Of a DNA stretch of 64,000 nt, positions 24,213 through 56,159 are shown one piece after another. Every line of letters begins with the position of its first letter. Position 1 is the first letter of the stretch. Where the stretch lies: the NCBI GenBank assembly GCA_900321005.1, contig ONUF01000015.1:1414-65413 (forward strand), read 5' to 3'. The notes beneath the pieces are model-generated. The model had not been told where the DNA came from. It saw only the letters and a program-made list of their open reading frames with translations, and did no database searches. Position numbers and translations under genes: made by a program. Source of the stretch: an uncultured Bacteroidales bacterium. Its GTDB lineage: Bacteria; Bacteroidota; Bacteroidia; Bacteroidales; Paludibacteraceae.

Positions 24213-24287
24213 ATGCGGTTTTGGTTGCAAAATGTAGAAAAATTATGTTTTTCTGCGGAAAAATTTGTGGGTACGAAATAATTTTTG

Positions 24288-24295
24288 TACCTTTG
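24288..24295 (+). promoter_or_regulatory. -7 box TACCTTTG for the HEPN/NTase pair
   Basis: ttttgTACCTTTGcgccc, 84 nt upstream of the ATG at 24379. Confidence 0.55.
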
Positions 24296-24378
24296 CGCCC
24301 AAATCTGTTGTGCGCACATATGTATGACGTGTATATACGTGTGTATGAGGGAGAAAAAAGAAAAGCAAGAAGTACATT

Positions 24379-24771
24379 ATGACTCAGGAAGAGAAAGTTA
24401 AATATTGGTTGGACATTGCCGAGTATGATTTAGAGACGGCGGAGGCGATGTATGTTACAAGACGATGGTTGTATGTGGCATTCATGTGTCACCAAGTGAT
24501 TGAAAAGACACTTAAGGCTTATTGGTCGGCGAAAAGAGAAGACATCCCTCCATATATTCACAACCATAAGCGCTTAGCAGAAGGATGTGGTTTGTATGAA
24601 TTATTGGACGAAGATCAAAAAGATTTTATTGACACCATCTCAACCTTTAACATCCAGGCGCGTTACCCGGAATATAAAGCCCAATTGGCGCAAGTACTGA
24701 CAGAATCAACATGTCGACACATCATAGATAAAACTAAAGAATTACAACAATGGATAAAGCAGAAGCTATAA
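24379..24771 (+). CDS. HEPN domain protein
   Basis: 130 aa, all-helical. AFMCHQVIEKTLKAYW and the C-terminal ARYPEY motif are typical of PF05168-type HEPN. Confidence 0.72.
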   Translation: MTQEEKVKYWLDIAEYDLETAEAMYVTRRWLYVAFMCHQVIEKTLKAYWSAKREDIPPYIHNHKRLAEGCGLYELLDEDQKDFIDTISTFNIQARYPEYKAQLAQVLTESTCRHIIDKTKELQQWIKQKL

Positions 24772-25049
24772 AACTGGTCAAGCAGTACAAGGAAGTTATT
24801 ATGCCGCGTTTCAACGATAAGGCGCGAGTGTACTTGTATGGCTCGTACAGCAAGGGGAATCAACGTCCAGAAAGCGACATTGATGTAGCCGTTGTTGTTC
24901 CGTCTGTTGGAGATAACTGGTTTGCCTATACAAAGGGGTTGTGGCGTGATGTAGATAAGGTAAGTTTGCTGATAGAACCGGTATTGCTTGAGGAGGCACA
25001 TCCGTCTCCGTTATATGACGATGTGATGCGAACAGGCATTGCCATTTGA
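24750..25049 (+). CDS. Minimal nucleotidyltransferase (MNT) domain protein
   Basis: LYGSYSKGNQRPESDIDVAVVV matches the GSxxxG...SDxD polymerase-beta NTase motif. It overlaps the HEPN gene by 22 nt. Confidence 0.75.
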   Translation: MDKAEAIKLVKQYKEVIMPRFNDKARVYLYGSYSKGNQRPESDIDVAVVVPSVGDNWFAYTKGLWRDVDKVSLLIEPVLLEEAHPSPLYDDVMRTGIAI

Positions 25050-25440
25050 CGGCGAAGAATAAGATAAAAAGAGAAGAGAGAGATGAGTGGGAGTTTGCCA
25101 CTTTGCCACTTTGCCACTTTGCCGAAGCAAATTTTTGAAAGTATCAAAGTATCAAAGTTTCACGACAAAAATTCAAAAAGAGCGACACAGCGACACTGCG
25201 ACACGGAGAAAATTCAAAAGAGATGAGACGTAGTTATTAGGATGAGATTAGGACGATATAAGGACTAAAGTCTAGGATTACCAGGTAAAAGGAAGGTAGT
25301 TGACAGGAGAATGAAAGGTAAATGACCTAAGGTAGACGGAAAGGGGACAACGAACCAATATCCAAGGAATAACGAACGAATAACTAACGGGCAGAAGCAC
25401 GGAGGAAGCAAAAAAAGACGGTTACAACTTGTGACCAACT
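25050..25440 (+). repeat. Purine-rich non-coding stretch built from a patchwork of short tandem repeats
   Basis: tttgccac x3.5 (25094-25125), agtatcaa x2, agcgacac x3, a repeated aaaattcaaaa(a)gag, and gatgaga-type units. The plus strand looks strongly A+G-rich by eye. Confidence 0.8.
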
Positions 25441-25458
25441 GAACGAATATAAACACCG

Positions 25459-25629
25459 ATGATTGCAGATGAGCAGAAGATGAATGAAATTATGGCATAC
25501 ATTGAGTACATCAAGTTGCGTCCCGTTCATCCGCAGATTACAATGGAAGAACTTGAAGCAAACGGCATGCCCTTAGATCAGGCTATGAACCAACTGCGCG
25601 AGAAGGCACGCAAATTCTATCAGGCATGA
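25459..25629 (+). CDS. Small helical protein (56 aa), candidate antitoxin of cassette 1
   Basis: Below the ORF-track cutoff. MIADEQKMNEIMAYIEYIKLRPVHPQITMEELEANGMPLDQAMNQLREKARKFYQA. Its stop overlaps the next ATG (GCATGA). Confidence 0.5.
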   Translation: MIADEQKMNEIMAYIEYIKLRPVHPQITMEELEANGMPLDQAMNQLREKARKFYQA

Positions 25630-25952
25630 AAGTATATATCGACAAGGTGGTATATCAAGTGCTAGATGAGTTCTACGACGCCAGCATGCGAAATCATATT
25701 ACTCTTGATTACCCAACGGTAATTGCTAAGATTGACAGACTGGAGCAAGCAATGTATGATTTTGCTTCCGAAGCGGACAAAGTGAATCATGTGCCTTATA
25801 GAAAAGATTGGCAGGCAGCAGGATATCGCGAGTTATACGTGGAGCATTTTCATTTTGCATACAAAGTATATAGCTTACCTACCGGCGAAACAGTACTCTA
25901 CTACCATGATGCCGTGCATGACACGCTAAACTATAACCCGGAAGATAAATAA
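25626..25952 (+). CDS. ParE/RelE-like toxin-fold protein (108 aa), cassette 1
   Basis: An N-terminal helical hairpin followed by YRELYVEHFHFAYKVYSLPTGETVLYYHDAVH, which fits the RelE/ParE beta-sheet pattern. It is a paralog of 34228-34548. Confidence 0.5.
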   Translation: MKVYIDKVVYQVLDEFYDASMRNHITLDYPTVIAKIDRLEQAMYDFASEADKVNHVPYRKDWQAAGYRELYVEHFHFAYKVYSLPTGETVLYYHDAVHDTLNYNPEDK

Positions 25953-25987
25953 CCTCAAAAAAGGAACAAGTGAAATAATTTATCTAT

Positions 25988-26040
25988 CGAGAATGGACCG
26001 AAGTTGGACCGAGAATGGACCGAAGTTAAATCGAGATTAA
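25988..26040 (+). repeat. 22-nt tandem repeat x2.4 upstream of the giant gene
   Basis: cgagaatggaccgaagttggac cgagaatggaccgaagttaaat cgagattaa. Confidence 0.9.
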
Positions 26041-26099
26041 CCCGTACATATCACGGAAAAACATTAACCAACGCAAATAATTAAATACAAAAAAATATT

Positions 26100-29000
26100 A
26101 TGAAAATTTTTAACTTAATCAAAAGGCTATGGACAGATAGCCATGAGAAACAATCACCGCAGCGGTTTGGACGGTATGCGGCAATGCTAATCATGCTCCT
26201 CACCCTCGGTGTCGGACAGATGTGGGCGAATGGAGACATTTATGGTTGTTGGTTCTCCTACTCCTATAGCGGAACAACAGGAGACAACAATGATTATAAC
26301 ACTTCCGGCGACAAAGACAAAGATTTAGGAACACTAACAGCCGATTTGATAGTAACATCCGTTTATCTTAAAATTTGGGATGATCAATCTGGCAGTCGCG
26401 CATGGACAAATGGTCAACTTTGTTATACTACGGACAATTGGGCTAACACCTCTTATGTCGGCAGCAATAATTGGACATTAGGAAGTAAGTCTGGAAATAA
26501 CTATCAATTAGAGAAAAGTAGCACAAGTTGGACACTCGCCAGCGCTACTGGCGCTTCTGGAAGTTATACTTTGAAATATTATTGGCAAGTATGGGGAGGT
26601 GGAGATAAATATCTTAATAATGGTGGTTCTAATTATTCTTTCACATACAAAGTTGCACCTCCGGCGGTTAGTGGATTCACAATCACACCTTCTGGTGAAG
26701 GCTATGTCAGCGGTTCTGGTACATCGGGAGACCCCTATATCATACACCGTTCTTCGGGTAATTTAACGCTTACAATTTCCGGATCTCAGGCACATACTGA
26801 TGCCAATTCAGTAGCAGAATATTCTGTAGATGGAGGCTCAACATGGTCTACATCCGTAGATTACGTTACTATCAACCGTGCTTTTGCTTCTACTACCGCC
26901 AAAAGCAAAACACTTAAAATGCGATATAAGAACTCAACTGCCAGTTTGACAGGTACAGAGAGCTCTTTTACAGCATATTATAAGTTAGAAGCAGGCTATA
27001 CTATTACTAAATGGGGAACTACAACCGGTGGTTCATACACCGTTCCTTCATCGGCCGGAGCTGTATCGGGTGGCACAGTAAGTGCAAGTCCAAGTACCGG
27101 TTATAATTTTGGTAGTTGGTCTGTAACATCTGGTTCCGGAACTTGGGAGAATAGTACATCAACTGCTAGCAATAAGTTTTACCCCACAAGTAATTCTACA
27201 TTAAAGGCCACCTTTACTGCCAAAAATTACACCGTTACGTTAGATAAAAACGATGGAGATTCGAATGGATCAATACGGACGACATATAATTCCACCTCGA
27301 CATCTTCTTTTACAGGTGCGTCACGTGTGGGCTACTCCTGCGACGGATATTTTACTGCATCTGATGGAGGAACCAAAATTATTAACGCGGATGGAACGTT
27401 AGTTAATGAAACCGTTTCCGGTTGGTTGAGTTCCGGTAAATGGGTAAAAAACGCAGCAACCATCACCCTTTATGCACATTGGATAGAAAATGCAACCAAT
27501 TATACGCTCCACTATACATACGGAACAGGTTTATCATCACTCTTTTCTTCAATAAGCGCAGTCAATTCCTCAGATGCATCTGCCATTAGCGACAATGCAT
27601 CATTGGTATCGGGAACAGGTGTCACCCTTACGGCCACACCTGCTACCCACTACAGATTTGATGGATGGTATAGTGCAGCAGGATGCGCAGCCAATACGCT
27701 GGTATCGACTAACAACCCTTATAGCTTCACCATGGATGACGACATCAATCTGTATGCTAAAGCAGTATTAATGACGACTACTATCACGCTTGATGCAAAC
27801 GGTGGTGCGGGTGGAACCTCGTCTGTTACAGCAACACATGGTAGTAACTCTTTATCTTCTTCCATTACCAAGCCGACCCGTACCGGTTATACTCTTTCTG
27901 GATGGTACACAGAGGAAAGCGGAGGAACACAAGTTATCTTGTCCTCCGGATATACTAAAGGAAGTGTTTCCGGCTACACAGATGCCAGCGGTAATTGGAC
28001 ATATACAGAAAGCACTCTTACGCTTTATGCTCACTGGACAGAGCAGAAAAAAACTCTTACACCGACGGTAAATTATAATGGAGGAGCGACTCCAAGTCCT
28101 GCATACACAGCGACATCAGCTAACACCGTCGGTGTTGCCACGACCACTGTACTGACGGCCTCAGAACCAAATGCAGAGCATTACACATTTGCAGGTTGGA
28201 CACTTACGAACCTGACAGTAACAAGTGGGAATGCTGCTACTGACCGCATTATTACGGTTAAGATAACCGATTATTCACAAGCTATTTCGGCTGTAGCAAA
28301 TTATACGGAGGTACTGACCAGCCGTTGGCACTTGGTGGGTGAGAGTTCTGACTTCCCTGATGGTTGGAATGTCAATTCGACCACGATGATGCAGAAAAAG
28401 ACAGGTCACTCGACAGAAGACGCTGTTTATTTTACGGTGGACGTAAACTCTACGGATGCTAAAGAATTCAAAATTGTGGATGACAATGGTGCAAGTGCTG
28501 ATATATGGTATGGCTATAGCAATGAAGCTCAGTACCAGCGCAATTGGACTAGCACAAACACTTATACCATATATAGTGGGTCTGGTAATGGTCAAAACTT
28601 AAAATATACTCCTACCGTAGTAGGTCCATATGAGTTTAAAGTTGACTATTCTGATGCAGACAATGTAGCTGTAACTGTTACATTCCCGACATCGTACACG
28701 CTGACCTATGACATCGGTACGGTAAAGGGTAACAACGGTAGTATTTCTACCAGCCCATCCACATCAAGCGGAAGTAAGGTACTAAGCGGCACTGATGTTA
28801 CTCTTACTGGTCCTGCTGCTGCAGCAGGTTATACCTGGAAAGGTTGGTACACGAACGCAGGCGGCACAACAGGTCACATTGAAGACGACACCCGCGCTAT
28901 CACGGTAACCATGAATGCCGACAAGACGCTGTATGCTTGCTATACGGAGAACAACTACACCGTTACTGTCAATGCAGGAGCTGGCGGTAGTGTAGCTTCC

Positions 29001-32000
29001 GGAAGCGTAACGGGTCATGTCAGCACGAAAGTAACGCTGCCAACGGCGACTCCTAGCACGGGCTATTACTTCACGGGTTGGGAAGTAACCAGCGGAACAG
29101 CAACACTGACTAGCGAGTCGAGCGCGAATGCAGCACAAATCAACGGCATGACAGCCGCTGTGACCGTGCGTGCGAACTTCGCTCCGATTTGGTATCTCAA
29201 GGGTGATTTCAACTCTTGGGGAGAAGGAAATCCGATTGCTCTGGCAAGTGCTACTTCCGGCTCTGTAACTTTGACTACTACGTCGGCTAAATTGTCGAAT
29301 AGCAAGTTTAAGATTTGGAACAAGCAAACAGACACCTATTACCAGAAAGCAAACCATGCTATTACCCGTGCAGCAAATACGGCGAGTGGTGGTTGGACAA
29401 ATGGCGGAACAAGCAACGACATGAAGTTCAACAGCGATGTCATCGGTGATTATATATTTGCTGTGACATTGTCATCCAACATTCCTTCCGCACTAACCGT
29501 CACCTATCCGGCGGCATATACCGTAACGTTCGGCATGGGTACTGGTGGTAGTACGATTACTGCAAGCACACCAAGTGCAGGTGGATCATTCACTTCGGGT
29601 GATTATGTGGCTTCCGGTGCTGATGTGACTTTCACTCAAACAGCTTCTTCAACCGGATACACCTTTACGGGTTGGTACACAACGAAGGATACGGGAGGTT
29701 CTGCTGTTACCGGCATGGGCGTTAGCGACAATGTATTAGAGAACGTCACGGCAAACAAAACCGTTTGGTCACGTTATACCGCTAACAATTATACCGTAAC
29801 GTTTGATAAGAACGGAGGAACAGTAACTCCATCTCCGACCAGCAAGAGTGTGACCTTCGGCTCGGCATATGGTGAATTACCCAGCGGAATGAAACACACA
29901 AGCAAGACCTTCGTAGGATGGTTCACAGAAAGCAGCGGCGGAACACTAGTTACTGCAGAAACTATAGTCAGCACGGCAAGTAACCACACGTTGTACGCAC
30001 AGTACGAGGATGTATACTCTGTGAACGTGGACTTCAAGTGTGGGGGTGCTAAAATCTATCCATCAACGGTTGTGAACGCTTCTCCGACCGCTTTGAGACC
30101 GACCATTACTGCGCCAGAGATCTTCGGTTATAGTTTCGTTAATTGGACCGGTGATGATGTTACTCCTGCAAGTGCGACAAGCGCGACAACAACTATTACA
30201 GCTACCGCAGCAACAACTATTACTGCAAACTATGCTGAAGTTCCAACGGTTTACTTCAAGAACAACCTTGAATGGGATTCCGTATTCGTATCGTTCGATA
30301 TTACGTGGACTACAGCCGGCGAAAAACAAGTGCCCAATAACAGCGGTAAGCCCTATTATGCTATGAAGCAAATTGGTACGACGGATATCTACTATTGCGA
30401 GATTCCGAGCACCTATACTGCCAGCAACTATGCAAGTTGGAGCGCAAATATTGCCTTCGACAACCAGAACTACAACCACAAGGCCACCACTACCCATACC
30501 GGAAATATGACGAGCTTCTACCAAGGCGAGTTCACCGGTCGTGGAGACTTTGACCCGAAAGCTACGTTGTTTATCCCATACAATGGCGATACCGAAGCAC
30601 GTAATGGCGGTACGTTCTACAAGACCGGTTGCTGGATGAAATATAACTCCACCGAATCAGGGTATCAACTGAATATGAATGAGTGGGTAACGGGAGAACA
30701 TGATGATCTGGCAACTCCAAATCTTACTGCTCCAACTGCAGGAGGATACGAGTTCTCTGCTACTGTTAACTTGTCAAATGCTGACTATAGTTATGGTTTC
30801 AAACTATACAAACAATATCAAAAGAACACAACGGATCTTTGGTACACCAATACCGGCACTATTAATGCCAGCACAGAGAGCTTGCCTTGGCATTTCTGGG
30901 CGGGTAGCACTATTACCGAAACTTCTCAACGTTGCGAATTACATACGGAGGCTGTCGGCGACTATAAGATCTCCGTTTCGTTTGCAACGGGTAGGCCGAT
31001 GGTAAATGTCGAGTATCCGACTCAGGTAGGCGATTGGCGTCTGGCTTACAACGACCGTATCGCATGGTCGGGCGACGCACATGCCGCAGATTGGTATATC
31101 TATTCACGCGTTATCAAAGCGAAAGCCGATGCAGAGGATCTCGTATCCTTCTACGTAAGCAAAGCTGTCGGCGCGAACGCGCATATCGAGTTGCAGAAAT
31201 GTACGGATATTAATCCTTCGACCGGCGCAGAGACATGGACCAAACAAGGTGACAATCTTGACCTCTCATCCATCACCGGAACCGGTATCTATAACTTCAA
31301 GGTTACGCAGAATGGAAGCAAAGTCGCTACCGCGGCTTATGATGGAGCTTATGAAGGCAACTTCTACATTCGCACCGATGCTTCGGATGGCGGATGGACG
31401 AACTACATCAGTTCAGGCAAGAACGTAATGACCTATTCGGAGTACGCAAAAGACTACAGCGGCTTCACGCACTACTATATGCGCTTCGTGGAGACCGGTA
31501 CGAACATCAAGTTTTGTATCGCCAACGACTATAGTCCGTGCCTCACGGAGTATTGTATAGACGATGACTATACAGGTGAGTATATCGAGGCTAAGGGCAA
31601 TGTACGCTACATGTGGGATCATCGCACGAATAAAGTCAGCCGCGCGTACATCAGCGGTTCTTCCGTAGTTTCCGACCGATTCCTCGTGCTGGAAGGAAAT
31701 ACCATGATTATGGCGGAAGACGGCACACCTCTGGCTATTGCTGGTCTGAATGCAAACGAGAAGAACTTTGCCGATGACCAGAACTGGATTTACGAAGCAA
31801 CTATTAAGGCAAAGCCAACAGCACGCGTTAAGTTGACTGCTAAGTTCAATAATCAGGTTCAGTACTTCAAGGGTTCAGAAGGTGCGTTTGCAGAAGGAAC
31901 AACTGTACAACTGATCGGCGGTACGGGTGATGACGCATACAAGATACGCGTTATCTATGATTTCAAGACCAACCGATTGGTAGGAGCTTGGCTGCCGGAT

Positions 32001-33479
32001 GATGAGACGGTGATTAGTAGCGATTGGCCGATAGATGCGGACATTATGGTGCTCCGTTATCACCAAGAAGGCGCGAAACAAATTAAGTTCTCCGGAAGCG
32101 GCGCATTGAGCGATGTGAAGACCGTATATGGAGCAATGCAGTTCAATAAATACCGTGTCAACAATAAAAGAGAAACTGCTCCACATGCCAACCTCGGATT
32201 GTCTAACTATGAGCGCGACTTGTACTGGATATCCTTCCCGTTTGAAGTGAAACTGAGTGACGTATTCGGTTTCGGAACCTACGGCAAGCACTGGATTATT
32301 GAGTACTACGACGGAAAGACTCGTGCTGCAAACGGCTTCTGGGCAGACAGCGATCCTAACTGGAAGTTCGTAACACCGAGTATGCGTAATAACGGCTACG
32401 TACTTAAAGCCAACCAAGGATATGTCCTTGCATTGGATCTGGATAATATGACCGAGGAGTCCGATGTCTGGGCTTATGGCACAGAGAATGTCTATCTGTA
32501 CTTCCCGTCGACGGCTCATGTAAGCGACATCGATGCGATGGACAGTAAGACGATTAGTATTGACCAAACAGGCTATGAGTGTACGATTAATCGTGGCACG
32601 CCGGATGGTGACCGTCGCGTAAAAGACAGTTACTGGCATGTGCTTGGCGTACCGAGTTATGCTAACGCAAGCCATGAAACGGCAAATGCATGGACAGGAA
32701 CAGTACCGAATATCGATCCGGATAACTGGACATCATCAGCTCCGTATATTTACGAGTGGGTTCCTTCAACCAACAAGTACACCGTTCATAGCAGTTCGTC
32801 AATGACATTCTTGCCGATGCATAGTTATTATGCTCAATATGCGCAAACGACTATCACTTGGACGAACATCAATGCAACTCCTGCGGCTTTGGTTGCACGT
32901 CGCAATGCGGCCCGCAAGAGCAATTATGAGTTCCGCATGGAAATGACTCTGGGCGATGAGGTAGCAGACCAGACCTTTGTTAGCTTCCGCGATGATGAAG
33001 CCGTTACGAATGAGTTTGACTTTAGCTACGACTTGAGTAAGATTACCAATGGTTCGTTTGCAAAGACTAACTGCATCTACACGCTGATTGGCTATGAGCG
33101 CGCTGCAGCTAACTGTTTGCCATTAGAAACAGAGGCAACCACTATCGTTCCTGTAGGCGTTAACATAGCGACCGCCGGCGAGTACACAATTGCTATCCCG
33201 AGCGGAACAAGCGGCGTAGGTGTGACACTGGTAGATAACGAGACGGGACTCCGCACCAACCTTGCGCTGGAGGATTACACCGTTGCGCTGGAGGCCGGCA
33301 CGCAAGACGACCGGTTCTACTTAGAGATCTCGCCGATCAAGCACGTCGCGACGGACATCGAGAATGTACAAAATGACGAAACCCAAAATGCAAAGGCACG
33401 CAAGGTTATCATCGATCAGAAGATGTACATCATCAAAGATGGTAGAGTATTTGACGCACAAGGTGCGAGAGTAAAATGA
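26100..33479 (+). CDS. Giant (2459 aa) cell-surface protein with Listeria-Bacteroides (InlB B-type) repeats, CBM-like modules and a possible T9SS-type C-terminal tail
   Basis: Signal/anchor AAMLIMLLTLGVGQMWA. At least 8 repeats of the form NYTVT(L/F)DKNGG...GY.F.GW(Y/F)T...GGT...LYA.W. WHLVGE/WYLKGDFNSWG modules. The C-terminus reads AGEYTIAIPS...VTLVDNETG...DRFYLEISP...KMYIIKDGRVFDAQGARVK. Confidence 0.8.
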   Translation: MKIFNLIKRLWTDSHEKQSPQRFGRYAAMLIMLLTLGVGQMWANGDIYGCWFSYSYSGTTGDNNDYNTSGDKDKDLGTLTADLIVTSVYLKIWDDQSGSRAWTNGQLCYTTDNWANTSYVGSNNWTLGSKSGNNYQLEKSSTSWTLASATGASGSYTLKYYWQVWGGGDKYLNNGGSNYSFTYKVAPPAVSGFTITPSGEGYVSGSGTSGDPYIIHRSSGNLTLTISGSQAHTDANSVAEYSVDGGSTWSTSVDYVTINRAFASTTAKSKTLKMRYKNSTASLTGTESSFTAYYKLEAGYTITKWGTTTGGSYTVPSSAGAVSGGTVSASPSTGYNFGSWSVTSGSGTWENSTSTASNKFYPTSNSTLKATFTAKNYTVTLDKNDGDSNGSIRTTYNSTSTSSFTGASRVGYSCDGYFTASDGGTKIINADGTLVNETVSGWLSSGKWVKNAATITLYAHWIENATNYTLHYTYGTGLSSLFSSISAVNSSDASAISDNASLVSGTGVTLTATPATHYRFDGWYSAAGCAANTLVSTNNPYSFTMDDDINLYAKAVLMTTTITLDANGGAGGTSSVTATHGSNSLSSSITKPTRTGYTLSGWYTEESGGTQVILSSGYTKGSVSGYTDASGNWTYTESTLTLYAHWTEQKKTLTPTVNYNGGATPSPAYTATSANTVGVATTTVLTASEPNAEHYTFAGWTLTNLTVTSGNAATDRIITVKITDYSQAISAVANYTEVLTSRWHLVGESSDFPDGWNVNSTTMMQKKTGHSTEDAVYFTVDVNSTDAKEFKIVDDNGASADIWYGYSNEAQYQRNWTSTNTYTIYSGSGNGQNLKYTPTVVGPYEFKVDYSDADNVAVTVTFPTSYTLTYDIGTVKGNNGSISTSPSTSSGSKVLSGTDVTLTGPAAAAGYTWKGWYTNAGGTTGHIEDDTRAITVTMNADKTLYACYTENNYTVTVNAGAGGSVASGSVTGHVSTKVTLPTATPSTGYYFTGWEVTSGTATLTSESSANAAQINGMTAAVTVRANFAPIWYLKGDFNSWGEGNPIALASATSGSVTLTTTSAKLSNSKFKIWNKQTDTYYQKANHAITRAANTASGGWTNGGTSNDMKFNSDVIGDYIFAVTLSSNIPSALTVTYPAAYTVTFGMGTGGSTITASTPSAGGSFTSGDYVASGADVTFTQTASSTGYTFTGWYTTKDTGGSAVTGMGVSDNVLENVTANKTVWSRYTANNYTVTFDKNGGTVTPSPTSKSVTFGSAYGELPSGMKHTSKTFVGWFTESSGGTLVTAETIVSTASNHTLYAQYEDVYSVNVDFKCGGAKIYPSTVVNASPTALRPTITAPEIFGYSFVNWTGDDVTPASATSATTTITATAATTITANYAEVPTVYFKNNLEWDSVFVSFDITWTTAGEKQVPNNSGKPYYAMKQIGTTDIYYCEIPSTYTASNYASWSANIAFDNQNYNHKATTTHTGNMTSFYQGEFTGRGDFDPKATLFIPYNGDTEARNGGTFYKTGCWMKYNSTESGYQLNMNEWVTGEHDDLATPNLTAPTAGGYEFSATVNLSNADYSYGFKLYKQYQKNTTDLWYTNTGTINASTESLPWHFWAGSTITETSQRCELHTEAVGDYKISVSFATGRPMVNVEYPTQVGDWRLAYNDRIAWSGDAHAADWYIYSRVIKAKADAEDLVSFYVSKAVGANAHIELQKCTDINPSTGAETWTKQGDNLDLSSITGTGIYNFKVTQNGSKVATAAYDGAYEGNFYIRTDASDGGWTNYISSGKNVMTYSEYAKDYSGFTHYYMRFVETGTNIKFCIANDYSPCLTEYCIDDDYTGEYIEAKGNVRYMWDHRTNKVSRAYISGSSVVSDRFLVLEGNTMIMAEDGTPLAIAGLNANEKNFADDQNWIYEATIKAKPTARVKLTAKFNNQVQYFKGSEGAFAEGTTVQLIGGTGDDAYKIRVIYDFKTNRLVGAWLPDDETVISSDWPIDADIMVLRYHQEGAKQIKFSGSGALSDVKTVYGAMQFNKYRVNNKRETAPHANLGLSNYERDLYWISFPFEVKLSDVFGFGTYGKHWIIEYYDGKTRAANGFWADSDPNWKFVTPSMRNNGYVLKANQGYVLALDLDNMTEESDVWAYGTENVYLYFPSTAHVSDIDAMDSKTISIDQTGYECTINRGTPDGDRRVKDSYWHVLGVPSYANASHETANAWTGTVPNIDPDNWTSSAPYIYEWVPSTNKYTVHSSSSMTFLPMHSYYAQYAQTTITWTNINATPAALVARRNAARKSNYEFRMEMTLGDEVADQTFVSFRDDEAVTNEFDFSYDLSKITNGSFAKTNCIYTLIGYERAAANCLPLETEATTIVPVGVNIATAGEYTIAIPSGTSGVGVTLVDNETGLRTNLALEDYTVALEAGTQDDRFYLEISPIKHVATDIENVQNDETQNAKARKVIIDQKMYIIKDGRVFDAQGARVK

Positions 33480-33493
33480 TGTATAAGGTATGA

Positions 33494-33525
33494 GTGAATT
33501 AGTGAATTAGAGAATTAGAGAAAGG
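33494..33525 (+). repeat. 8-nt tandem array GTGAATTA/GAGAATTA x4 forming the spacer before the 128-aa gene
   Basis: gtgaatta gtgaatta gagaatta gagaaagg, immediately followed by ATG. Confidence 0.9.
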
Positions 33526-33912
33526 ATGAAAGATATGAAAACGAAACTTTATATAAGCATTTTATTCTGCATCGTAGCAGCCAATACTTGGGCACAGACC
33601 TACCGGAACACCTATACTCCCAGCGAACCGCGGGAGTATGAGGTGATCCAGAGCCAGCAGATCATGAAAACCGGCGCGCATGACGGAACGATCTATGAGC
33701 CGTTCAGCAGCACTACTCCGTCCGAGCAGAGTGTTATAGGAGCGGCACAGACCACTTCCAACGGTCCTCACCGTGCTAAAAGGGATTTCGATACTCCGGG
33801 TGAGGAAAACCAATCCAACGAGTTCCCTCTCGGCGATGCGGCGCTGCCGTTGATGCTGTTCGCCGTTGCTTTTGGCGGGGTGATTGCCTTCCGCCGGAGA
33901 CGGGAGGCGTGA
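33526..33912 (+). CDS. Small secreted protein with a tripartite C-terminal sorting-signal-like tail
   Basis: Signal peptide KLYISILFCIVAANTWAQ and a low-complexity middle. The C-terminus FPLGDAALPLMLFAVAFGGVIAFRRRREA has motif, TM helix and Arg cluster, like PEP-CTERM or LPXTG-class signals. Confidence 0.6.
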   Translation: MKDMKTKLYISILFCIVAANTWAQTYRNTYTPSEPREYEVIQSQQIMKTGAHDGTIYEPFSSTTPSEQSVIGAAQTTSNGPHRAKRDFDTPGEENQSNEFPLGDAALPLMLFAVAFGGVIAFRRRREA

Positions 33913-33927
33913 TAACAGCAAACATAC

Positions 33928-33998
33928 CCGAATTATAGCCTGCAGCAATGCGGGCTATAGTTTTTTTGCGCAGCCAATTTGGTTTTAGTAAATAAACA
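33928..33998 (+). repeat. Direct repeat copy 1 (71 nt; includes the terminator)
   Basis: It differs from 34570-34641 at 2 substitutions plus one extra T in the T-tract. Confidence 0.9.
33934..33967 (+). terminator. Rho-independent terminator with a GNRA loop
   Basis: tatagcctgca-GCAA-tgcgggctata (11 bp including one G-U pair), then g and ttttttt. Confidence 0.8.
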
Positions 33999-34048
33999 AA
34001 AATACCAAAAATAATTATTGAACTCTTGCATATGTCAGAAAAAAGTTG

Positions 34049-34056
34049 TACTTTTG
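34049..34056 (+). promoter_or_regulatory. -7 box TACTTTTG for cassette 2
   Basis: gttgTACTTTTGcagc, 17 nt before the ATG at 34073. Confidence 0.55.
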
Positions 34057-34072
34057 CAGCGCAAAAGTTTAA

Positions 34073-34231
34073 ATGACAAAAAAACTGCCAATCATGGAAG
34101 CTGCATTAAAACAACCGATGAGCCAAGGAGGTTATGGAACAATCTCTGAGGAAAAATGGAACAGTCTGCATACCGTAGATGAACTGGATGCAACGTTGAA
34201 GGAGATCATCCACAACCATTTTCATGCATGA
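34073..34231 (+). CDS. Small protein (52 aa), candidate antitoxin of cassette 2
   Basis: Below the ORF-track cutoff. MTKKLPIMEAALKQPMSQGGYGTISEEKWNSLHTVDELDATLKEIIHNHFHA. It has the same GCATGA stop/start overlap as cassette 1. Confidence 0.5.
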   Translation: MTKKLPIMEAALKQPMSQGGYGTISEEKWNSLHTVDELDATLKEIIHNHFHA

Positions 34232-34548
34232 GAACATTGGAAGTGCGCATAGATGATGGAGTTTTCCTCGATTTAACTGAGTTTTACAAATTCAGTCTCC
34301 GGAAACATCCTGCGTTAGACGAAATTACGGTATTGAAGAAAGAGCAACGTCTTATCCAATCCTTAAAGGACTTAGGCAAATATGCTCTAACAGACAATAC
34401 GCCTGTGCGGCATATCCCTTGGATTCGAAAAGGATATAAAGATTATTATATCGAGGGTTTCCACTTCGGATATAAAATCGAGACTTTGCCCTCCGGCGAA
34501 CAAGTAGTAGTTGTATACGAAGCGCTCCACGAATTATTATTCGTATAA
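34228..34548 (+). CDS. ParE/RelE-like toxin-fold protein (106 aa), cassette 2
   Basis: YKDYYIEGFHFGYKIETLPSGEQVVVVYEALH aligns with YRELYVEHFHFAYKVYSLPTGETVLYYHDAVH of cassette 1. Confidence 0.5.
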   Translation: MRTLEVRIDDGVFLDLTEFYKFSLRKHPALDEITVLKKEQRLIQSLKDLGKYALTDNTPVRHIPWIRKGYKDYYIEGFHFGYKIETLPSGEQVVVVYEALHELLFV

Positions 34549-34569
34549 CGCACAACAAATAAGTAAAAA

Positions 34570-34641
34570 CCTAATTATAGCCTGCAGCGATGCGGGCTAT
34601 AGTTTTTTTTGCGCAGCCAATTTGGTTTTAGTAAATAAACA
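34570..34641 (+). repeat. Direct repeat copy 2 (72 nt; includes the terminator)
   Basis: Near-identical to 33928-33998. Together the two copies bracket cassette 2. Confidence 0.9.
34576..34610 (+). terminator. Rho-independent terminator with a GNRA loop (paralog)
   Basis: tatagcctgca-GCGA-tgcgggctata, then g and tttttttt. Confidence 0.8.
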
Positions 34642-34650
34642 TAGATAAAC

Positions 34651-34800
34651 TCCTCCGTATGAGTTAGCATGGTATACGGCCCACGCGGCCTTAGCATACT
34701 TGTCTACTAATACGCGCTCACAAGCGAGCTTGCAGCGCGGCTTACTAGCCAACTCCGCCGCACAAGAGTTGCGACATACCATACTACCTCATCCGTCGGC
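34651..34800. mobile_element. Hairpin-ended insertion element, copy A (150 bp), flanked by perfect GATAAAC direct repeats
   Basis: GATAAAC at 34644-34650 and again at 34801-34807. The roughly 30-nt termini tcctccgtatgagttagcatggtat / ataccatactacctcatccgtcgg are imperfectly complementary (about 21/30). The paralogous site at 33989-34020 lacks the insert. Confidence 0.6.
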
Positions 34801-34830
34801 GATAAACAAAAATAAAAATTATTTAAATCG

Positions 34831-34908
34831 AATTATTGAAATCGAATAATTATAAGTATAATAATTGAAGGCATAATTATTGAGATCGGATTATTCAAAT
34901 CGAATAAT
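34831..34908. promoter_or_regulatory. Array of AATTATTGA motifs including two perfect palindromes (candidate operator sites)
   Basis: aattatt-gaaatcg-aataatt (34831-34851) and attattc-aaatc-gaataat (34890-34908). Further AATTATTGA copies are at about 34874, about 34971 and 34012. Confidence 0.45.
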
Positions 34909-35019
34909 TGTAATTTAATTACGCTTGGAAGCGTAACGCTTAGAGGCGTAATAAGGACGAAAAATATGCAAAATTATTGAAATTTAATTATTTAATTTGC
35001 ATAATTCAAAAAAATGTAG

Positions 35020-35027
35020 TACCTTTG
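35020..35027 (+). promoter_or_regulatory. -7 box TACCTTTG for the ATPase gene
   Basis: gtagTACCTTTGcggg, 27 nt before the ATG at 35054. It lies inside the ORF-track N-terminal extension, which argues for the later start. Confidence 0.6.
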
Positions 35028-35053
35028 CGGGCAAAATAGAAAATATCTATACG

Positions 35054-36220
35054 ATGGATAAAATCACCAACCCATTTATCGTACAAGGCGACATCCCCGA
35101 GGCGTATTTCTGCGACCGCGAAAAGGAGACAGAGCATTTGATACGGTATATAACAAACGGCAATAATGTCGTTCTGTCTGCTCCGCGGCGCGTCGGGAAA
35201 AGCAAACTGATTGCACACTGCTTTGCACAACCGGAGATTAAAAAGCATTACTACACCATCTTCGTGGATATTCTGCAGACCAACAATCTGCAGGAGTTCA
35301 CATACGAATTGGGAAAAGCCGTGTTTGGAATTACCGGTTCTCTCGGCAGTAAGATGCTGAAGTTATTCGGGCAAACCGTTCACTCGCTACGTGGAGAATA
35401 TACGATAGACCCGATGACGAATCTGCCTAAATTCAGCATGGCTCTCGGGCATATCGAAAATCCGACATATACCATAGAGGAGGTGTTCGAGTTTCTCGAA
35501 AAAGCCGACAAACCATGTATTGTGGCGATTGACGAGTTTCAGCGCATAGCTCAATATCCGGAGAAGAATGTAGAGGCTATTCTGCGCACACATATCCAGC
35601 GTATGCGTAATTGCAACTTTATTTATGCCGGTTCTGAAAGACACCTATTGGGCCAGATGTTCTTAGACTATAACCGTCCCTTCTATCAGAGCTCGTCCAT
35701 GATGAACTTGGAAAAGATAGAGCGAAACAAATATAGCGCTTTTGCCGTCAAGCATTTTAATGAGTTCGGGAAGAGCATCACCGAAGAGAATGTCAACCGC
35801 GTATACGATTTATTCGACGGCAACACGTTCGCGATGCATAAAACGCTGAACGTAGCCTTCTCTATCACGCCGGAAGGGAACGAATGCGATCTACCTACCC
35901 TTCGCAAAGCGATAGAGAACATCTTGGGCGAAAGCGACCACGATTTTCGCGCCAGATTGATGCCTATGAGTTTGCCGCAAAAAGAAGTACTCTACGCGAT
36001 TGCACGCAGCGGCATTGCTACGCAGATTACCGGCGCTGATTTCTTAAAAAAGCACCATTTAGGTTCCTCCAGTTCTGTACAATCGGCGGTTCGCAAACTG
36101 CTGGCAGACGGATGGATTACAGAGTACTACAATGCTGATGGTAAGAAATGCTATCAGCTATACGACTATTTCCTGACCCTGTGGATTCAGCAGAATTACG
36201 GAAGAGGATACGAATTATAA
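35054..36220 (+). CDS. ATP-binding protein, Arch_ATPase (PF01637)/DUF234-like
   Basis: Start trimmed to MDKITNPFIVQG. Walker A SAPRRVGKS, Walker B IVAIDEFQ and a C-terminal winged-helix-like region. Confidence 0.7.
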   Translation: MDKITNPFIVQGDIPEAYFCDREKETEHLIRYITNGNNVVLSAPRRVGKSKLIAHCFAQPEIKKHYYTIFVDILQTNNLQEFTYELGKAVFGITGSLGSKMLKLFGQTVHSLRGEYTIDPMTNLPKFSMALGHIENPTYTIEEVFEFLEKADKPCIVAIDEFQRIAQYPEKNVEAILRTHIQRMRNCNFIYAGSERHLLGQMFLDYNRPFYQSSSMMNLEKIERNKYSAFAVKHFNEFGKSITEENVNRVYDLFDGNTFAMHKTLNVAFSITPEGNECDLPTLRKAIENILGESDHDFRARLMPMSLPQKEVLYAIARSGIATQITGADFLKKHHLGSSSSVQSAVRKLLADGWITEYYNADGKKCYQLYDYFLTLWIQQNYGRGYEL

Positions 36221-36253
36221 TTGATTATTGATGATTGATAATTGAAAATTAGT
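36219..36253 (+). repeat. Heptamer array AATTGAT-family x5 forming the ATPase-panD spacer
   Basis: aattgat tattgat gattgat aattgaa aattagt. It overlaps the TAA stop of the ATPase gene. Confidence 0.9.
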
Positions 36254-36260
36254 TAGCTCT

Positions 36261-36602
36261 ATGCTTTTGAATATACTGAAATCAAAGATTCACCGCGTAC
36301 AGGTGACAGAGGCGAACCTCGAGTATATCGGTTCCATCACGATCGACGAGGCACTCATGGAAGCGGCGAATATCGTTGCCGGCGAACGCGTGCAGGTAGT
36401 GGATAACACCAACGGTGCGCGGCTGGAGACATACGTGATAGCCGGCAAACGCGGGTCGGGGTGCATATGCATCAACGGCGCGGCGGCGCACTTAGTGCAC
36501 GTGGGCGACACGGTGATTATCATGGCGTACGCGATGATGACGCCGGAAGAAGCACGCTCGTTTAAGCCCGCGATTGTTTTTCCTGTGAATAATAAAATTT
36601 AA
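36261..36602 (+). CDS. panD: Aspartate 1-decarboxylase
   Basis: [29 protein letters not shown] (self-cleavage Gly-Ser site), 113 aa. Confidence 0.92.
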
Positions 36603-36624
36603 TGGTAAATAAACAAAGATAAAC

Positions 36625-36758
36625 ACTGCTTGCATTGGTTGTTTGCGCTTAACGCGCTGCGAGTGACCGCCCAGCCTGCCTACTTACAAGTAAACTTAAT
36701 GTAGTCCGTCAGGACGACCCCTCACCGCCAACGGCGGTAAACATCCAACGCCAGCAGC
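36625..36758. mobile_element. Hairpin-ended insertion element, copy B (134 bp)
   Basis: Flanked by GATAAAC (36618-36624) and GATAAAA (36759-36765). Termini are ctgcttgcattggttgttt / aaacatccaacgccagcag. Internal hairpins are gcgc-ttaac-gcgc, gtcc-gtca-ggac and accgcc-aa-cggcggt. Confidence 0.6.
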
Positions 36759-36867
36759 GATAAAAAGAAATAAATTATTCATCCGCGACGAATTTTATCT
36801 ATGTTTATCGCCGAAGTTGGCTATTAACTCGCAAGAGTGTTGAGCACAAAATCCACAGGACTGAATT

Positions 36868-38001
36868 ATGGCATTTTTTGAATTACATAGCGAGGCGAAG
36901 GGCGTCGGGCCGAGGGCGGGAGTGATACATACCGACCACGGCGATATCCTCACGCCGATATTTATGCCCGTCGGAACAGCCGGGACGGTGAAAGGTGTGC
37001 AGCGCAAGGAGTTGGAGGAAGACATCAAGGCGCAGATCATCCTCGGCAATACCTATCATCTCTTCCTGCGTCCGGGAACGGAGATCCTGCGTCAGACCGG
37101 CGGATTACACCGATTCGAAGGTTGGACACGGCCGATATTGACGGACTCGGGCGGTTTTCAGGTGTTCAGTCTGACGGATATCCGCAAGATGACCGAAGAG
37201 GGCGTACGGTTTAGCAGTCATATCGACGGCCGCAAACTGATGTTCACCCCGGAATCGGTGATGGACATCGAGCGCGAGATAGGCGCCGACATCATGATGG
37301 CTTTCGACGAGTGCTGTCCCGGCACGGCGGACAAGAAATACGCGAAAGACTCGATGGACCGCACGCACCGGTGGCTGGACCGCTGCATCGCGCGCTTCGA
37401 CGGTACGGACGATCTGTACGGCTACAAGCAACACCTGTTCCCGATTGTGCAGGGTTGCACCTATACCGACTTGCGGCAGGACGCGTGCAAGCGCTTGCGG
37501 GATCTGGACCGCGACGGCTATGCGATAGGCGGACTGGCGGTAGGTGAACCGACGGAAGTGATGTACGAGATGATCGAGGCGTGCAACGACATATTGCCGA
37601 CCGAAAAACCCCGTTATCTGATGGGCGTCGGGACACCGTGGAACATCCTCGAGGCGATCGAGCGCGGCGTGGATATGTTCGACTGCGTGATGCCGACCCG
37701 CAACGGCCGCAACGGAATGATTTTCACCTGGAACGGCGTGATGAATCTGCGCAACAAGAAATGGGAGGACGACTTCACGGAACTGGATCCGGCGGGCACG
37801 AGTTATGTCGATCACGCGTACACTCGCGCGTACGTTCGACATTTAATACACGCGCAGGAGATGTTAGGACTCGAAGTGCTGTCGATTCATAACCTCGCGT
37901 TCTATCTCGACCTCGTGACGCAGGCAAGGGAGCATATCCTCAAGGGCGATTACGAGAGCTGGATGCAAGGCGTGATGCCGGCGCTCATGACGCGGCTGTA
38001 G
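36868..38001 (+). CDS. tgt: Queuine tRNA-ribosyltransferase
   Basis: TPIFMPVGT, LTDSGGFQVFS, GLAVGE and MFDCVMPTRNGRNG motifs. Confidence 0.93.
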   Translation: MAFFELHSEAKGVGPRAGVIHTDHGDILTPIFMPVGTAGTVKGVQRKELEEDIKAQIILGNTYHLFLRPGTEILRQTGGLHRFEGWTRPILTDSGGFQVFSLTDIRKMTEEGVRFSSHIDGRKLMFTPESVMDIEREIGADIMMAFDECCPGTADKKYAKDSMDRTHRWLDRCIARFDGTDDLYGYKQHLFPIVQGCTYTDLRQDACKRLRDLDRDGYAIGGLAVGEPTEVMYEMIEACNDILPTEKPRYLMGVGTPWNILEAIERGVDMFDCVMPTRNGRNGMIFTWNGVMNLRNKKWEDDFTELDPAGTSYVDHAYTRAYVRHLIHAQEMLGLEVLSIHNLAFYLDLVTQAREHILKGDYESWMQGVMPALMTRL

Positions 38002-38032
38002 CTATTTTATGGTAAATAAAAAGAAATAAAAT

Positions 38033-38167
38033 CTGCTTGCATTGGCTGTTTGCGCTTGACGCGCTGCGAGTGCCGCACTCCACCGCGCCGTTTACAAATA
38101 TATTTGACACGTCTCGATAGAGCACGTCCCTCACCGCCAAAGGCGGTAAACATCCAACGCCAGCAGC
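38033..38167. mobile_element. Hairpin-ended insertion element, copy C (135 bp), same subfamily as B
   Basis: Its termini match B apart from one base in the 5' arm. The interior has diverged but keeps hairpins gcgc-ttgac-gcgc, ctc-gata-gag and accgcc-aaa-ggcggt. It is followed by GATAAAT. Confidence 0.6.
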
Positions 38168-38274
38168 GATAAATTTAAATAAAGCATTTCCTCTACAGGT
38201 TATTTGTTTAGCAGGAATTCTACTAAGGCACGCAAGCAGAAAGGTTACAATAAGTAAAAAATATCAATACTATT

Positions 38275-38715: not shown

Positions 38716-38744
38716 ATTTTAATGGTAAATAAAAATAGATAAAG

Positions 38745-38873
38745 TCCTTCGCCGGCAATATGCCTTAACAGGCCGTTCGCGTTCCACGCCATACCGCGCC
38801 CTTAAAAGTAAACTTTACGTGCCCGTTAGGGCATCGGACCGCACCTCCAAAGGAGGTAATTGCCGCCAAAGGC
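38745..38873. mobile_element. Hairpin-ended insertion element, copy D (129 bp)
   Basis: Flanked by GATAAAG (38738-38744) and GATAAAA (38874-38880). Termini are ccttcgccggcaat / attgccgccaaagg. Hairpins gcct-taac-aggc, gccc-gtta-gggc and acctcc-aaa-ggaggt covary with those of B and C. Confidence 0.55.
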
Positions 38874-39077
38874 GATAAAACTATAATAAATTATGGATGT
38901 GCGGTGTAGCCATTGGGCTACCGTCAAATGTATTTGTAAGGGTAGTCGTTGGGGATTCAGCGCAGAGGCTTGCATGAGCCTATGACAGAGCGGAAGAGTT
39001 TATTTAGGTTTATTTACATAAAAAAGAGAGGAGCGCCACGCGGCAAGGAGATACTTCTCCGACGAGCGGGAGGCAAA

Positions 39078-56140: not shown

Positions 56141-56159
56141 AATTTTTCCTTTCTTTAGG

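Follow-up and report, generated by a model that had tools for sequence, protein, structure and literature searches.

What kind of unit occupies the 12 kb between glgP and panD in a rumen/gut Paludibacteraceae genome? The question arises from a 64,000-nt stretch of contig ONUF01000015.1 (the window), whose open reading frame (ORF) map gives, in order, glgP, a HEPN gene, a minimal nucleotidyltransferase (MNT) gene, about 400 nt of non-coding DNA, genes for 56- and 108-aa proteins (cassette 1), a gene for a very large protein (the giant), a gene for a small one (the mini-protein), genes for 52- and 106-aa proteins (cassette 2), an ATPase gene, panD and tgt. A sequence-only reading had listed these elements, all of which are present at or very near the coordinates it gave, and had taken the interval for an imported island with an addiction bracket. 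Our own answer, held with moderate confidence, is that the glgP-panD interval is a strain-variable cassette hotspot around a lineage-specific giant-mini unit, for whose members we propose roles. Positions are those of the window, and L001, L002 and so on denote relatives' loci used in the comparison.

The giant and mini genes are an obligate pair

All ORFs of 100 loci were scanned with hidden Markov models (HMMs) for the mini-protein and for the conserved C-terminal module of the giant (C-module). Across about 23 independent contexts the mini gene takes one of three positions: directly downstream of a giant gene, directly upstream of it, or fused to its N-terminus. The downstream arrangement accounts for 12 distinct contexts, the upstream one for six (L026, L032, L034, L040, L045 and L046; the order in L034 is glgP, mini, giant, panD), and at four loci (L021, L022, L041 and L050) the mini-protein and a shortened giant share one ORF. 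Spacing is tight: in L001-16, L019, L020, L025, L038 and L052 a gap of 45-145 nt separates the giant gene from the mini gene downstream of it, and for mini homologues from 97% down to 38% identity a giant of 1700-2660 aa with Flg_new repeats always stands 45-145 nt upstream. Directly downstream of two giants that are more distant, a mini ORF is present that had not been called. Nine of the best 150 mini representatives are N-terminal mini fusions of 1464-2144 aa, with a junction that reads TM-RQYKRK...MKNSTxKFIATLALLCTLGVGQMWA (TM, transmembrane segment), the basic tail of the mini part running into the giant's signal peptide. The two proteins form an obligate pair, which is the constant core of the locus; a partial exception, L017, is taken up with the proposed model. 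Neither the obligate pairing, nor the fusions, nor the short shared tag described below is covered by any library or literature that we found, and publications on Paludibacteraceae starch binding and type IX secretion (T9SS), or on Listeria-Bacteroides repeats with starch, contained no description of the pair.

The giant joins a B-repeat half to a predicted starch-binding-type module

Three B-repeat models match the giant above their thresholds, which places it in the InlB B-repeat/Listeria-Bacteroides repeat family: Flg_new (PF09479) in seven stretches (E 6e-36, 122.8 bits, cut-off 27), Flg_new_2 (PF18998) in six (E 7e-24, 84 bits) and TIGR02543 (E 2e-16, 60 bits). Together with eight GYxFxGW-type signatures, these matches bear out the earlier count of at least eight InlB B-type repeats, and a chunk-wise HMM scan places every repeat within aa ~300-1385. 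The modules of the WxLxG type that had been likened to carbohydrate-binding modules (CBMs) were also found, one WxLxG...W module at aa 743 and another at aa 1031. Chunk-wise scanning with Pfam and NCBIfam gave no family match for aa 44-300 or aa 1385-2459. The DNA of the extended signal peptide (26100-26228) is 89-92% conserved even where the sequence downstream of it is unalignable. No lipobox Cys follows this signal peptide, and for that reason we dropped the idea that the giant is a lipoprotein.

The C-module family comprises at least 98 clusters, all from Paludibacteraceae, one member of which is named 'starch-binding protein' by NCBI; the N-terminal parts of its members vary and include Flg_new, Flg_new_2, CBM26 and PF22058. 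As a single sequence the C-module has no Pfam, NCBIfam or PDB sequence match. An AlphaFold (AF2) model built on 40 sequences is all-beta and multi-domain, with a predicted local distance difference test (pLDDT) score of 78. Its best Foldseek match is SusF (4fe9, E 1.3e-8, probability 1.0), followed by Sca5 X25-2, SusE, the starch-binding domain of AmyP and an amylase CBM (probability 0.85-0.97). By this structural similarity the predicted module groups with SusE, SusF and CBMs, and it resembles a string of SusE/SusF- and X25-like sandwiches of starch-binding type, for which binding is predicted. Two features of SusE/SusF themselves are absent, namely a lipobox Cys and SusC/D genes beside the giant gene.

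Cassettes turn over around the pair

L001-4 are contigs whose flanks are 96-99.8% identical to the window by blastn. Against them, window positions 29910-33967 are 98.4% identical, and the B-repeat half of the giant gene (26229-29909) is unalignable. This segment corresponds to L001 3330-6383, so that the N-terminal 1270 aa of the giant are entirely different, with ~98% identity on both sides. The break points are sharp, one at the end of the signal peptide and one inside a B-repeat. This pattern indicates that recombination exchanged the N-terminal half as an allelic replacement.

The same comparison resolves gains and losses of whole cassettes. L001-4 lack positions 33968-34813, which hold cassette 2, and 37952-39084, which hold a PDDEXK_3 gene. 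L005/6 have cassette 2 together with a Y_phosphatase3 gene; in the slot of cassette 1, enclosed by the same conserved spacers, they carry ORF6N and Abi_2. In L052, which represents the window's species in GTDB and has a 98% identical glgP, cassette 1 is intact and a further gene pair (70+102 aa) is present; its giant is a different allele of 1262 aa, and its mini-protein is only 58% identical. The HEPN gene is present in L001-4 and variable elsewhere; the ATPase gene is found in L001-6 and not in L012/13. The purine-rich spacer left of cassette 1 is 98% identical to that of L001 and 91% identical to that of L005, despite the different neighbouring cassette in the latter, and serves as a conserved slot boundary.

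Among 80 species-level relatives, many have the giant-mini pair between glgP and panD and others show an inverted panD block. In L023 (5-nt gap), L024 and L078 glgP abuts panD-tgt. These empty sites, and the different cassettes of near-identical strains, uphold the earlier description of the interval as accessory and variable. In L044 the near-empty glgP-panD spacer (5207-5868, 660 nt) retains coding remnants of both genes, from the motif region of the mini-protein (VYQPFNNTAPSEY, PIGEPW and a TM segment) and from the giant's tail (MLIDGVLYIVRDDKIYDCRGVLVH); it is a deletion relic of the pair.

Toxin-antitoxin (TA)-type cassettes also recur beside giants in unrelated contexts. The same 74+108-aa module as in cassette 1 lies directly upstream of the giants in L101 and L102, HEPN/MNT and PIN genes stand directly upstream of those of L020 and L102, and L102 has YoeB there as well. 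Other genes in this upstream position are AAA_15 with DUF4435 (L007) and, at further loci, Bro-N, Fic and RhuM.

The interval has a GC content of 0.38-0.49 against ~0.52 in the flanks. At third codon positions (GC3) the giant gene stands at 0.457 (0.39 in its hypervariable half, 26229-29909), and the TA-type genes at 0.41-0.47 (HEPN gene, 0.42), against 0.59-0.76 for the core genes; the giant is indeed the more A/T-rich, as had been judged by eye. The mini gene, at 0.62, is near-native. Giants of every relative examined have a low GC3 (0.36-0.52) beside core genes at 0.62-0.75, so that the value is a property of the giant family and not evidence of recent import here; recent horizontal transfer read from GC3 was dropped on this ground. 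A functional link of the giant to glgP was dropped as well, since family giants also lie at unrelated loci (L009, L017, L019 and L020).

These data bear directly on the proposal that all 12 kb form one surface-structure island, acquired horizontally and kept in place by two bracketing paralogous addiction cassettes. Part of it stands: the interval is variable and accessory, some species have an empty site, GC and GC3 are low, the 108- and 106-aa proteins are paralogous, and TA modules accompany giants in other genomes. The bracket, however, is not fixed. Cassette 2 is missing from L001-4 and cassette 1 is replaced in L005, the two varying independently between strains with near-identical flanks; nor is the bracket tied to the adhesin, given that L052 keeps cassette 1 beside a wholly different giant. 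Gain and loss of cassettes, which the data indicate to be independent of giant alleles, counts against the island. Nor is the giant-mini pair a recent import into this genome: many species have it at this site, L044 keeps a relic of it, the low GC3 is family-wide, and the mini gene has a native-like GC3. The interval showed neither an integrase nor a transposase gene, nor a tRNA boundary. We consider the island rather unlikely.

The giant ends in a shared tag and matches no model of a type IX C-terminal domain

The giant's penultimate domain, searched with the family profile, matches residues 1237-1359 of 8gl6_D (RemA/RemZ, 1436 aa) at E 1.4e-10, and 8gl6_D is the sole solved protein that this profile detects by sequence. 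In RemA/RemZ only the last ~77 aa are the T9SS C-terminal domain (CTD), the secretion signal (PMC10994853), and a T9SS CTD folds as a sandwich of seven strands, with a minimum length of ~58 aa (PMC11285876). What follows the RemA-like domain in the giant is a tail of only ~36 aa with three strands. The CTD models TIGR04183, TIGR04131 and PF18962 match neither the whole protein (E up to 0.1) nor, taken alone, its last 55 or 184 aa (E up to 10), so that the T9SS tail suspected earlier (TIGR04183) is not borne out. Because these defining HMM tests fail, the giant does not qualify as T9SS type A or type B cargo.

The tail ends in a tag of ~25 aa (aa 2434-2459, 33399-33476) with the pattern K-x-[IL]-x-[DN]-G-x-L-x-I-x-R-[DN]-G-K-x-Y-x3-G-x2-V, in which the window's giant reads DQ in place of DG. 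Often preceded by a disordered linker, the tag ends many unrelated signal-peptide-bearing Paludibacteraceae proteins and was seen in L005 (10401-12140), L023 (15709-18741, minus strand), L024, L035, L042, L057, L059, L075 and L085. NCBIfam recognised it in none of eight other tag-bearing proteins, and it matches no Pfam or NCBIfam model. Its presence on many unrelated secreted proteins, together with this lack of recognition, identifies the giant's short tail as a shared, unmodelled C-terminal tag, which may serve in sorting or anchoring. The same tag is borne by a secreted Y_phosphatase3 protein of ~580 aa, whose gene stands directly downstream of the mini gene in several lineages (L005 10482-12143, L007, L014 7487-9265, L019 10795-12537) and is absent from the window; this protein is a possible third and facultative member of the giant-mini unit.

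Could the pair nevertheless be a canonical T9SS cargo with its accessory protein, in the manner of SprB with SprF/PorP, the giant having a divergent CTD and the mini-protein serving as carrier or anchor? Homology of the penultimate domain to the RemA/RemZ pre-CTD region, the wide sharing of the tag among secreted proteins and a T9SS component in a related metagenome-assembled genome (one T9SS_plug_1st gene) fit such a view, yet we think it improbable in the light of the CTD searches, negative even on the isolated C-terminus, of a three-strand tail that falls short of the seven-strand CTD of at least 58 aa (PMC11285876), and of a mini-protein that is single-pass and not a PorP/SprF-type barrel.

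The mini-protein is bitopic, with a conserved tripartite tail

A profile search of 1.84 billion representatives with the mini-protein returned 722 clusters. An exact look-up of the window's own protein gave no record, and Pfam, NCBIfam and PADLOC gave no match. The family protein is bitopic and ~125 aa long, with a cleavable signal peptide, an ectodomain, the motif Px-G-[DE]-[AP], a TM segment and a basic tail. The window's member conforms to this plan, and its earlier description as a 128-aa secreted protein with a motif-TM-RRRR tail is confirmed by its signal peptide, PLGDA, TM segment and RRRREA. The ectodomain is of low complexity, with a motif GT-I-Y-E-P-F-x3-P-S-E conserved in the alignment. 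Among 141 short family members, GEP precedes the TM segment in 47 and GDA in 42.

So strong a conservation of the tripartite tail (PxG[DE][AP], TM, Arg cluster) invites the interpretation, contained in the label 'sorting-signal mini-protein', that it is a true sorting signal, cleaved in an exosortase-, rhombosortase- or sortase-like manner, with the ectodomain passed to a surface polymer or to the giant. Matches to MYXO-, PEFG-, PEP- and IPTL-CTERM models point the same way, but all of them lie below the cut-offs (best 15.3 bits for the window's protein and 18.5 bits for a family variant with PLGEPW, against cut-offs of 20-25 bits) and mainly cover the TM segment and Arg cluster. In the profile search, tails of this type were seen on the mini family only, fusions included, rather than on many unrelated cargoes, and no sortase-type gene was seen in the ~25 neighbourhoods viewed. 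In the fusions, moreover, the tail lies inside the protein and leads on to the signal peptide of the giant, which fits a plain membrane anchor. Since the defining HMM tests fail, the mini-protein does not qualify as a PEP-CTERM-type substrate, and a sorting signal of any such kind seems decidedly unlikely.

That the giant might be a polymorphic toxin or contact-dependent effector with the small downstream gene as its immunity gene is scarcely credible and was dropped: the giant is secreted, has a small ORF within 47 nt and lies in a TA/Abi-rich neighbourhood, but it is the wrong end that varies, the N-terminal half being variable and the CBM/Ig-like C-terminus most conserved, HMM searches found no toxin domain in it, and the mini-protein is conserved across giant alleles, exported and membrane-anchored, and can stand upstream or be fused N-terminally.

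Cassettes, spacers and repeats of the interval

The features of the locus are collected in Table 1.

Table 1. Features of the glgP-panD interval and related repeats (window coordinates)
Feature	Position	Strand	Description or evidence
glgP	21570-24131		Left flank of interval; ORF map
HEPN-domain protein	24379-24771	+	130 aa; toxin-type half of pair; PF05168 E 4e-22
MNT	24750-25049	+	99 aa; PF01909 E 5e-10, PF18765 E 3e-9
Purine-rich non-coding spacer	25050-25458	+	67% purine; 8-11-nt tandem repeats
Cassette 1 small partner	25459-25629	+	56 aa; antitoxin candidate; 4-nt overlap with 108-aa gene
Cassette 1 predicted ParE/RelE-fold protein	25626-25952	+	108 aa; toxin candidate; AF2 model, Foldseek
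Giant	26100-33479	+	2459 aa; Flg_new, Flg_new_2, TIGR02543
Giant, extended signal peptide	26100-26228	+	aa 1-43; basic n-region, then LLTLGVGQMWA
Giant, hypervariable N-terminal half	26229-29909	+	~250 aa without family match, B-repeats, two WxLxG CBM-like modules
Giant, conserved C-module	30252-33476	+	aa 1385-2459 (1075 aa); tandem all-beta domains, predicted starch-binding type
Giant, RemA/RemZ pre-CTD-like domain	33000-33368	+	aa 2301-2423; family profile vs 8gl6_D, E 1.4e-10
Giant, linker and ~25-aa C-terminal tag RKVIIDQKMYIIKDGRVFDAQGARVK	33369-33476	+	aa 2424-2459; tag common to secreted proteins of related genomes
Mini-protein	33526-33912	+	128 aa; signal peptide, ectodomain, PLGDA, TM, RRRREA
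Left copy of ~80-nt direct repeat	33928-34004	+	Terminator hairpin and following box; 95% identical to right copy
Cassette 2 small partner	34073-34231	+	52 aa; antitoxin candidate; 4-nt overlap with 106-aa gene; conserved in L005/6
Cassette 2 predicted ParE/RelE-fold paralogue	34228-34548	+	106 aa; 39% identity to 108-aa protein
Right copy of direct repeat	34570-34647	+	Intrinsic terminator with 14-bp stem at 34573-34604; with left copy, brackets cassette 2
Structured intergenic repeat	34628-34800	+	~173 nt; end boxes, closing stem, internal hairpins
Further structured-repeat copies	36602-36785, 38009-38195, 38722-38890
Partial structured-repeat copy	38960-39017	-
ATPase_2-family ATPase	35055-36220	+	388 aa from ATG; C-terminal winged helix-turn-helix; PF01637 E 6e-15
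panD	36261-36602	+	Right core boundary of variable interval; TIGR00223 E 3e-48, PF02261 E 2e-50

The HEPN/MNT pair recognised from the sequence is confirmed by Pfam (HEPN, 79 bits, cut-off 22; MNT with PF01909, 40 bits, cut-off 21) and by a 22-nt overlap of the two genes; the MntA model NF047752 matches the MNT protein at E 9e-9, under its cut-off. A Bacteroidetes-type promoter box, TACCTTTG, precedes the HEPN gene (24288-24295) and occurs again before the ATPase gene (35020-35027). The ATPase ORF opens at a TTG (34997), its likely start being the ATG at 35055. Of its earlier label, Arch_ATPase/DUF234, the first half stands (PF01637, 56 bits, cut-off 33.2), whereas DUF234 gave no match at E up to 0.1 and the C-terminus shows instead a weak match to a MarR-like winged helix-turn-helix (MarR_2, E 4e-3).

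The spacer between the MNT gene and cassette 1 has the highest purine content of the window (mean 52.5%, standard deviation 3.6), and its description as a purine-rich repeat patchwork of ~400 nt was accurate. It is a concatenation of short tandem repeats of a kind found window-wide: units of 7-8 nt in 3 to 7 copies occupy many short intergenic spacers, at 7348, 12104, 21235, 24134, 33496, 36213, 41861, 42846, 44226 and 54512, with further short tandem repeats at 6561, 48183 and 50166, and the unit AATTGAT is found in three different spacers. Repeats of this sort look like a genome-wide habit and not an island-specific one. Rfam, searched at E up to 1 over 20-40 kb of the window, gave no match.

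Cassettes 1 and 2 had been described as paralogous, which is true of their larger proteins and not of their smaller ones. The 108- and 106-aa proteins are 39% identical (E 1e-24), the latter aligning throughout the alignment of the 108-aa family, whereas the 56- and 52-aa partners have no detectable similarity. The 108-aa family consists of 61 clusters, all annotated as hypothetical and all from Paludibacteraceae metagenome bins. None of the four proteins has a Pfam, NCBIfam or PADLOC match (E up to 0.1-1), phmmer found no PDB sequence match for the 108-aa protein at E up to 10, and hhalign of its family against RK2 ParE and E. coli RelE gave no signal. By sequence it does not count as a member of the ParE/RelE family (PF05016). 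The AlphaFold model, built on a 26-sequence alignment, has a pLDDT of 91.6 and a beta-alpha-alpha-beta3 order (a strand, two long helices and a short one, then three strands). Foldseek ranks 1-11 in the PDB are all ParE, RelE or PfiT toxins (probability 1.0, TM scores 0.5-0.76, E 3e-3 to 4e-2), and subsequent matches have E >0.5. With such a run of matches followed by a jump in E, the assignment of a ParE/RelE fold stands for the predicted structure, toxicity being putative; of the earlier ParE/RelE label the fold survives and the HMM match, for the 108- and the 106-aa protein alike, does not. The two genes are predicted to add a ParE/RelE-fold family that current HMM libraries miss.

In relatives the cassette 1 partner has 74 aa, and the window's form is N-terminally shortened. 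A 70-nt deletion (window 25400-25470 against L001 1880-2020) takes the start and the first 18 codons; an operator-like palindrome upstream, GTTACAActTGTgAC, is kept despite it. The deletion may have unbalanced or inactivated the module.

The 'hairpin element' noted between cassette 2 and the ATPase gene exists but proved to be two things, a duplicated terminator with a 14-bp stem and a structured repeat of ~173 nt. In L005 the same terminator hairpin closes both the phosphatase gene and cassette 2, and in L001 it closes the mini gene. The structured repeat recurs after cassette 2, panD, tgt and the PDDEXK_3 gene, with five copies clustered within 5 kb. Its end box, GTAAATAAAnnnAnATAAA, has six matches against 0.01 expected, and an alignment of six copies shows compensatory changes in 21 of 27 pairs; it has no Rfam match. 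Of 104 loci, L005 and L006 have six copies of the end-box motif each and L045 has one; the others, L001-4 among them, are without it. The PDDEXK_3 nuclease-family gene (38275-38715; PF13366, E 2e-32), inserted between tgt and lptF/G and flanked by two copies of the repeat, is likewise present in L005/6 and not in L001-4.

Further away in the window lie a glycogen debranching enzyme gene (GDE_N + GDE_C, 8861-10843, ~11 kb upstream of glgP) and a SusC/SusD-like pair with an unassigned 510-aa gene (54608-61073, minus strand); we note the debranching gene and the SusC/SusD-like pair only as a context of alpha-glucan metabolism.

Proposed model

On the favoured reading, of a cassette hotspot around a giant-mini unit, the giant, a Sec-exported protein, would be displayed at the surface, where it would bind alpha-glucan or plant glycans, its variable half setting ligand or antigen specificity. 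It might cross the outer membrane by a T9SS-related or still undefined route, guided by the C-terminal tag. In the fusions the basic tail of the mini-protein runs into the giant's signal peptide, which implies that the mini TM segment and that signal peptide lie side by side in the inner membrane. Under the positive-inside rule a basic loop is cytoplasmic, and both ectodomains would then be periplasmic. The mini-protein is most likely a dedicated export, holding or anchoring partner of the giant, presumably acting stoichiometrically, one to one. The surrounding genes (HEPN-MNT, the two ParE/RelE-fold genes with their partners, ATPase_2 and PDDEXK_3) would be interchangeable cassettes of selfish or defence type, delimited by the repeated terminator hairpins and the structured repeat. 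Such cassettes accumulate beside giants in many genomes and may incidentally stabilise the locus, without being part of its function.

Several observations weigh against parts of this model. The co-occurrence of adhesin and mini-protein, a pairing flagged from the sequence, holds in ~23 contexts, but L017, which has a CBM26-type giant, shows only a mini-like gene for 252 aa, 1.4 kb upstream and separated from the giant gene by an intervening one. The ectodomain of the mini-protein appears disordered, a role as chaperone or anchor is drawn from synteny and fusion only, and contact between the two proteins is putative. The fusions could be cut by signal peptidase, in which case they would be no more informative than adjacency, or might be gene calls that read through an internal start. 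Starch binding rests on local Foldseek matches of a multi-domain model with a pLDDT of 78 and low global TM scores, and no T9SS CTD model matches to support a particular outer-membrane route. As for the cassettes, the partner in cassette 1 is truncated, and the 108- and 106-aa proteins are toxin candidates only.

A bolder version of the model is one that we put forward tentatively, as a possibility. The giant-mini pair would be a previously undescribed two-partner surface-display system of Paludibacteraceae in which the mini-protein, a dedicated bitopic partner, pairs in the inner membrane with the giant's extended signal peptide and is required for the export or tethering of allele-swapping, glycan-binding giants, while the new tag replaces the T9SS CTD at the outer membrane; and the ~175-nt repeats that delimit the neighbouring TA cassettes might be recombination sites that shuffle cassettes in the manner of attC sites.

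Comparison with known systems

The elements that the locus combines are of known kinds, namely a surface protein that has both B-repeats and CBM-type domains, HEPN-MNT, and predicted ParE/RelE-fold modules. Its HEPN-MNT genes overlap and both pass Pfam thresholds, as in type VII TA pairs; unlike these, the HEPN gene comes first and the MntA equivalog score is below cut-off; the pair is a TA candidate. Cassettes 1 and 2 share with ParDE and RelBE type II systems a small upstream gene that overlaps a gene for a protein of ~105 aa by 4 nt, the operator-like palindrome upstream of cassette 1, and the predicted beta-alpha-alpha-beta3 fold of the 108-aa protein, whose top structural matches are all ParE/RelE. 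They differ in having no HMM, PDB-sequence or hhalign similarity to those systems and in partners that belong to no known antitoxin family and are mutually unrelated; both cassettes are candidate modules. Turnover of such TA cassettes beside large surface-protein genes is documented here at base-pair resolution.

The ~175-nt elements, with conserved end boxes and a variable paired interior, recall integron attC sites, as in clusters of attC sites lacking integron integrases (CALIN arrays), and repetitive extragenic palindromes (REP) or miniature inverted-repeat transposable elements (MITE). Like attC arrays they follow successive genes and flank inserted cassettes, a TA cassette among them. 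Unlike attC arrays they come without any integrase that we found, their boxes differ from the attC consensus, and they also follow the housekeeping genes panD and tgt, in a comparison of only six copies.

The tail of the mini-protein is laid out like the PEP-CTERM and MYXO-CTERM signals, with a motif, a TM segment and an Arg cluster at the C-terminus of a signal-peptide protein. It departs from them in scoring under all curated cut-offs, in being confined to one protein family with no processing enzyme nearby, and in its internal position in the fusions.

As a very large, repetitive protein of surface-adhesin type in Bacteroidota, the giant is comparable to RemA/RemZ and SprB of Flavobacterium johnsoniae. 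The pre-CTD domain of RemA has a homologue in the giant's penultimate domain, and the giant has an adjacent accessory gene, as sprB has sprF. Unlike RemA and SprB it has no detected type A or B CTD, its tail being half the length of one, and its partner is a 125-aa bitopic protein where that of SprB is a PorP/SprF barrel.

The predicted beta-sandwich string of the C-module links the giant to SusE/SusF of Bacteroides and to the X25/CBM26 domains of Ruminococcus bromii Sca5 and amylases. Further points in common are paralogues that carry CBM26 and a gut or rumen Bacteroidales host. In contrast to SusE/SusF it is not a lipoprotein, lies outside any polysaccharide utilization locus (PUL), is five times larger, carries InlB B-repeats and a C-terminal tag of its own, comes with the mini-protein as obligate partner, and is without similarity to them at sequence level. 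Paludibacteraceae are abundant uncultured degraders of plant fibre and starch in the rumen and hindgut, and the giant family bears on how they attach to their substrates. The fusions imply a concrete membrane topology for the pair, and the giant-mini family as a whole points to a lineage-specific form of surface display outside both the PUL/lipoprotein and the classical T9SS-CTD paradigms.

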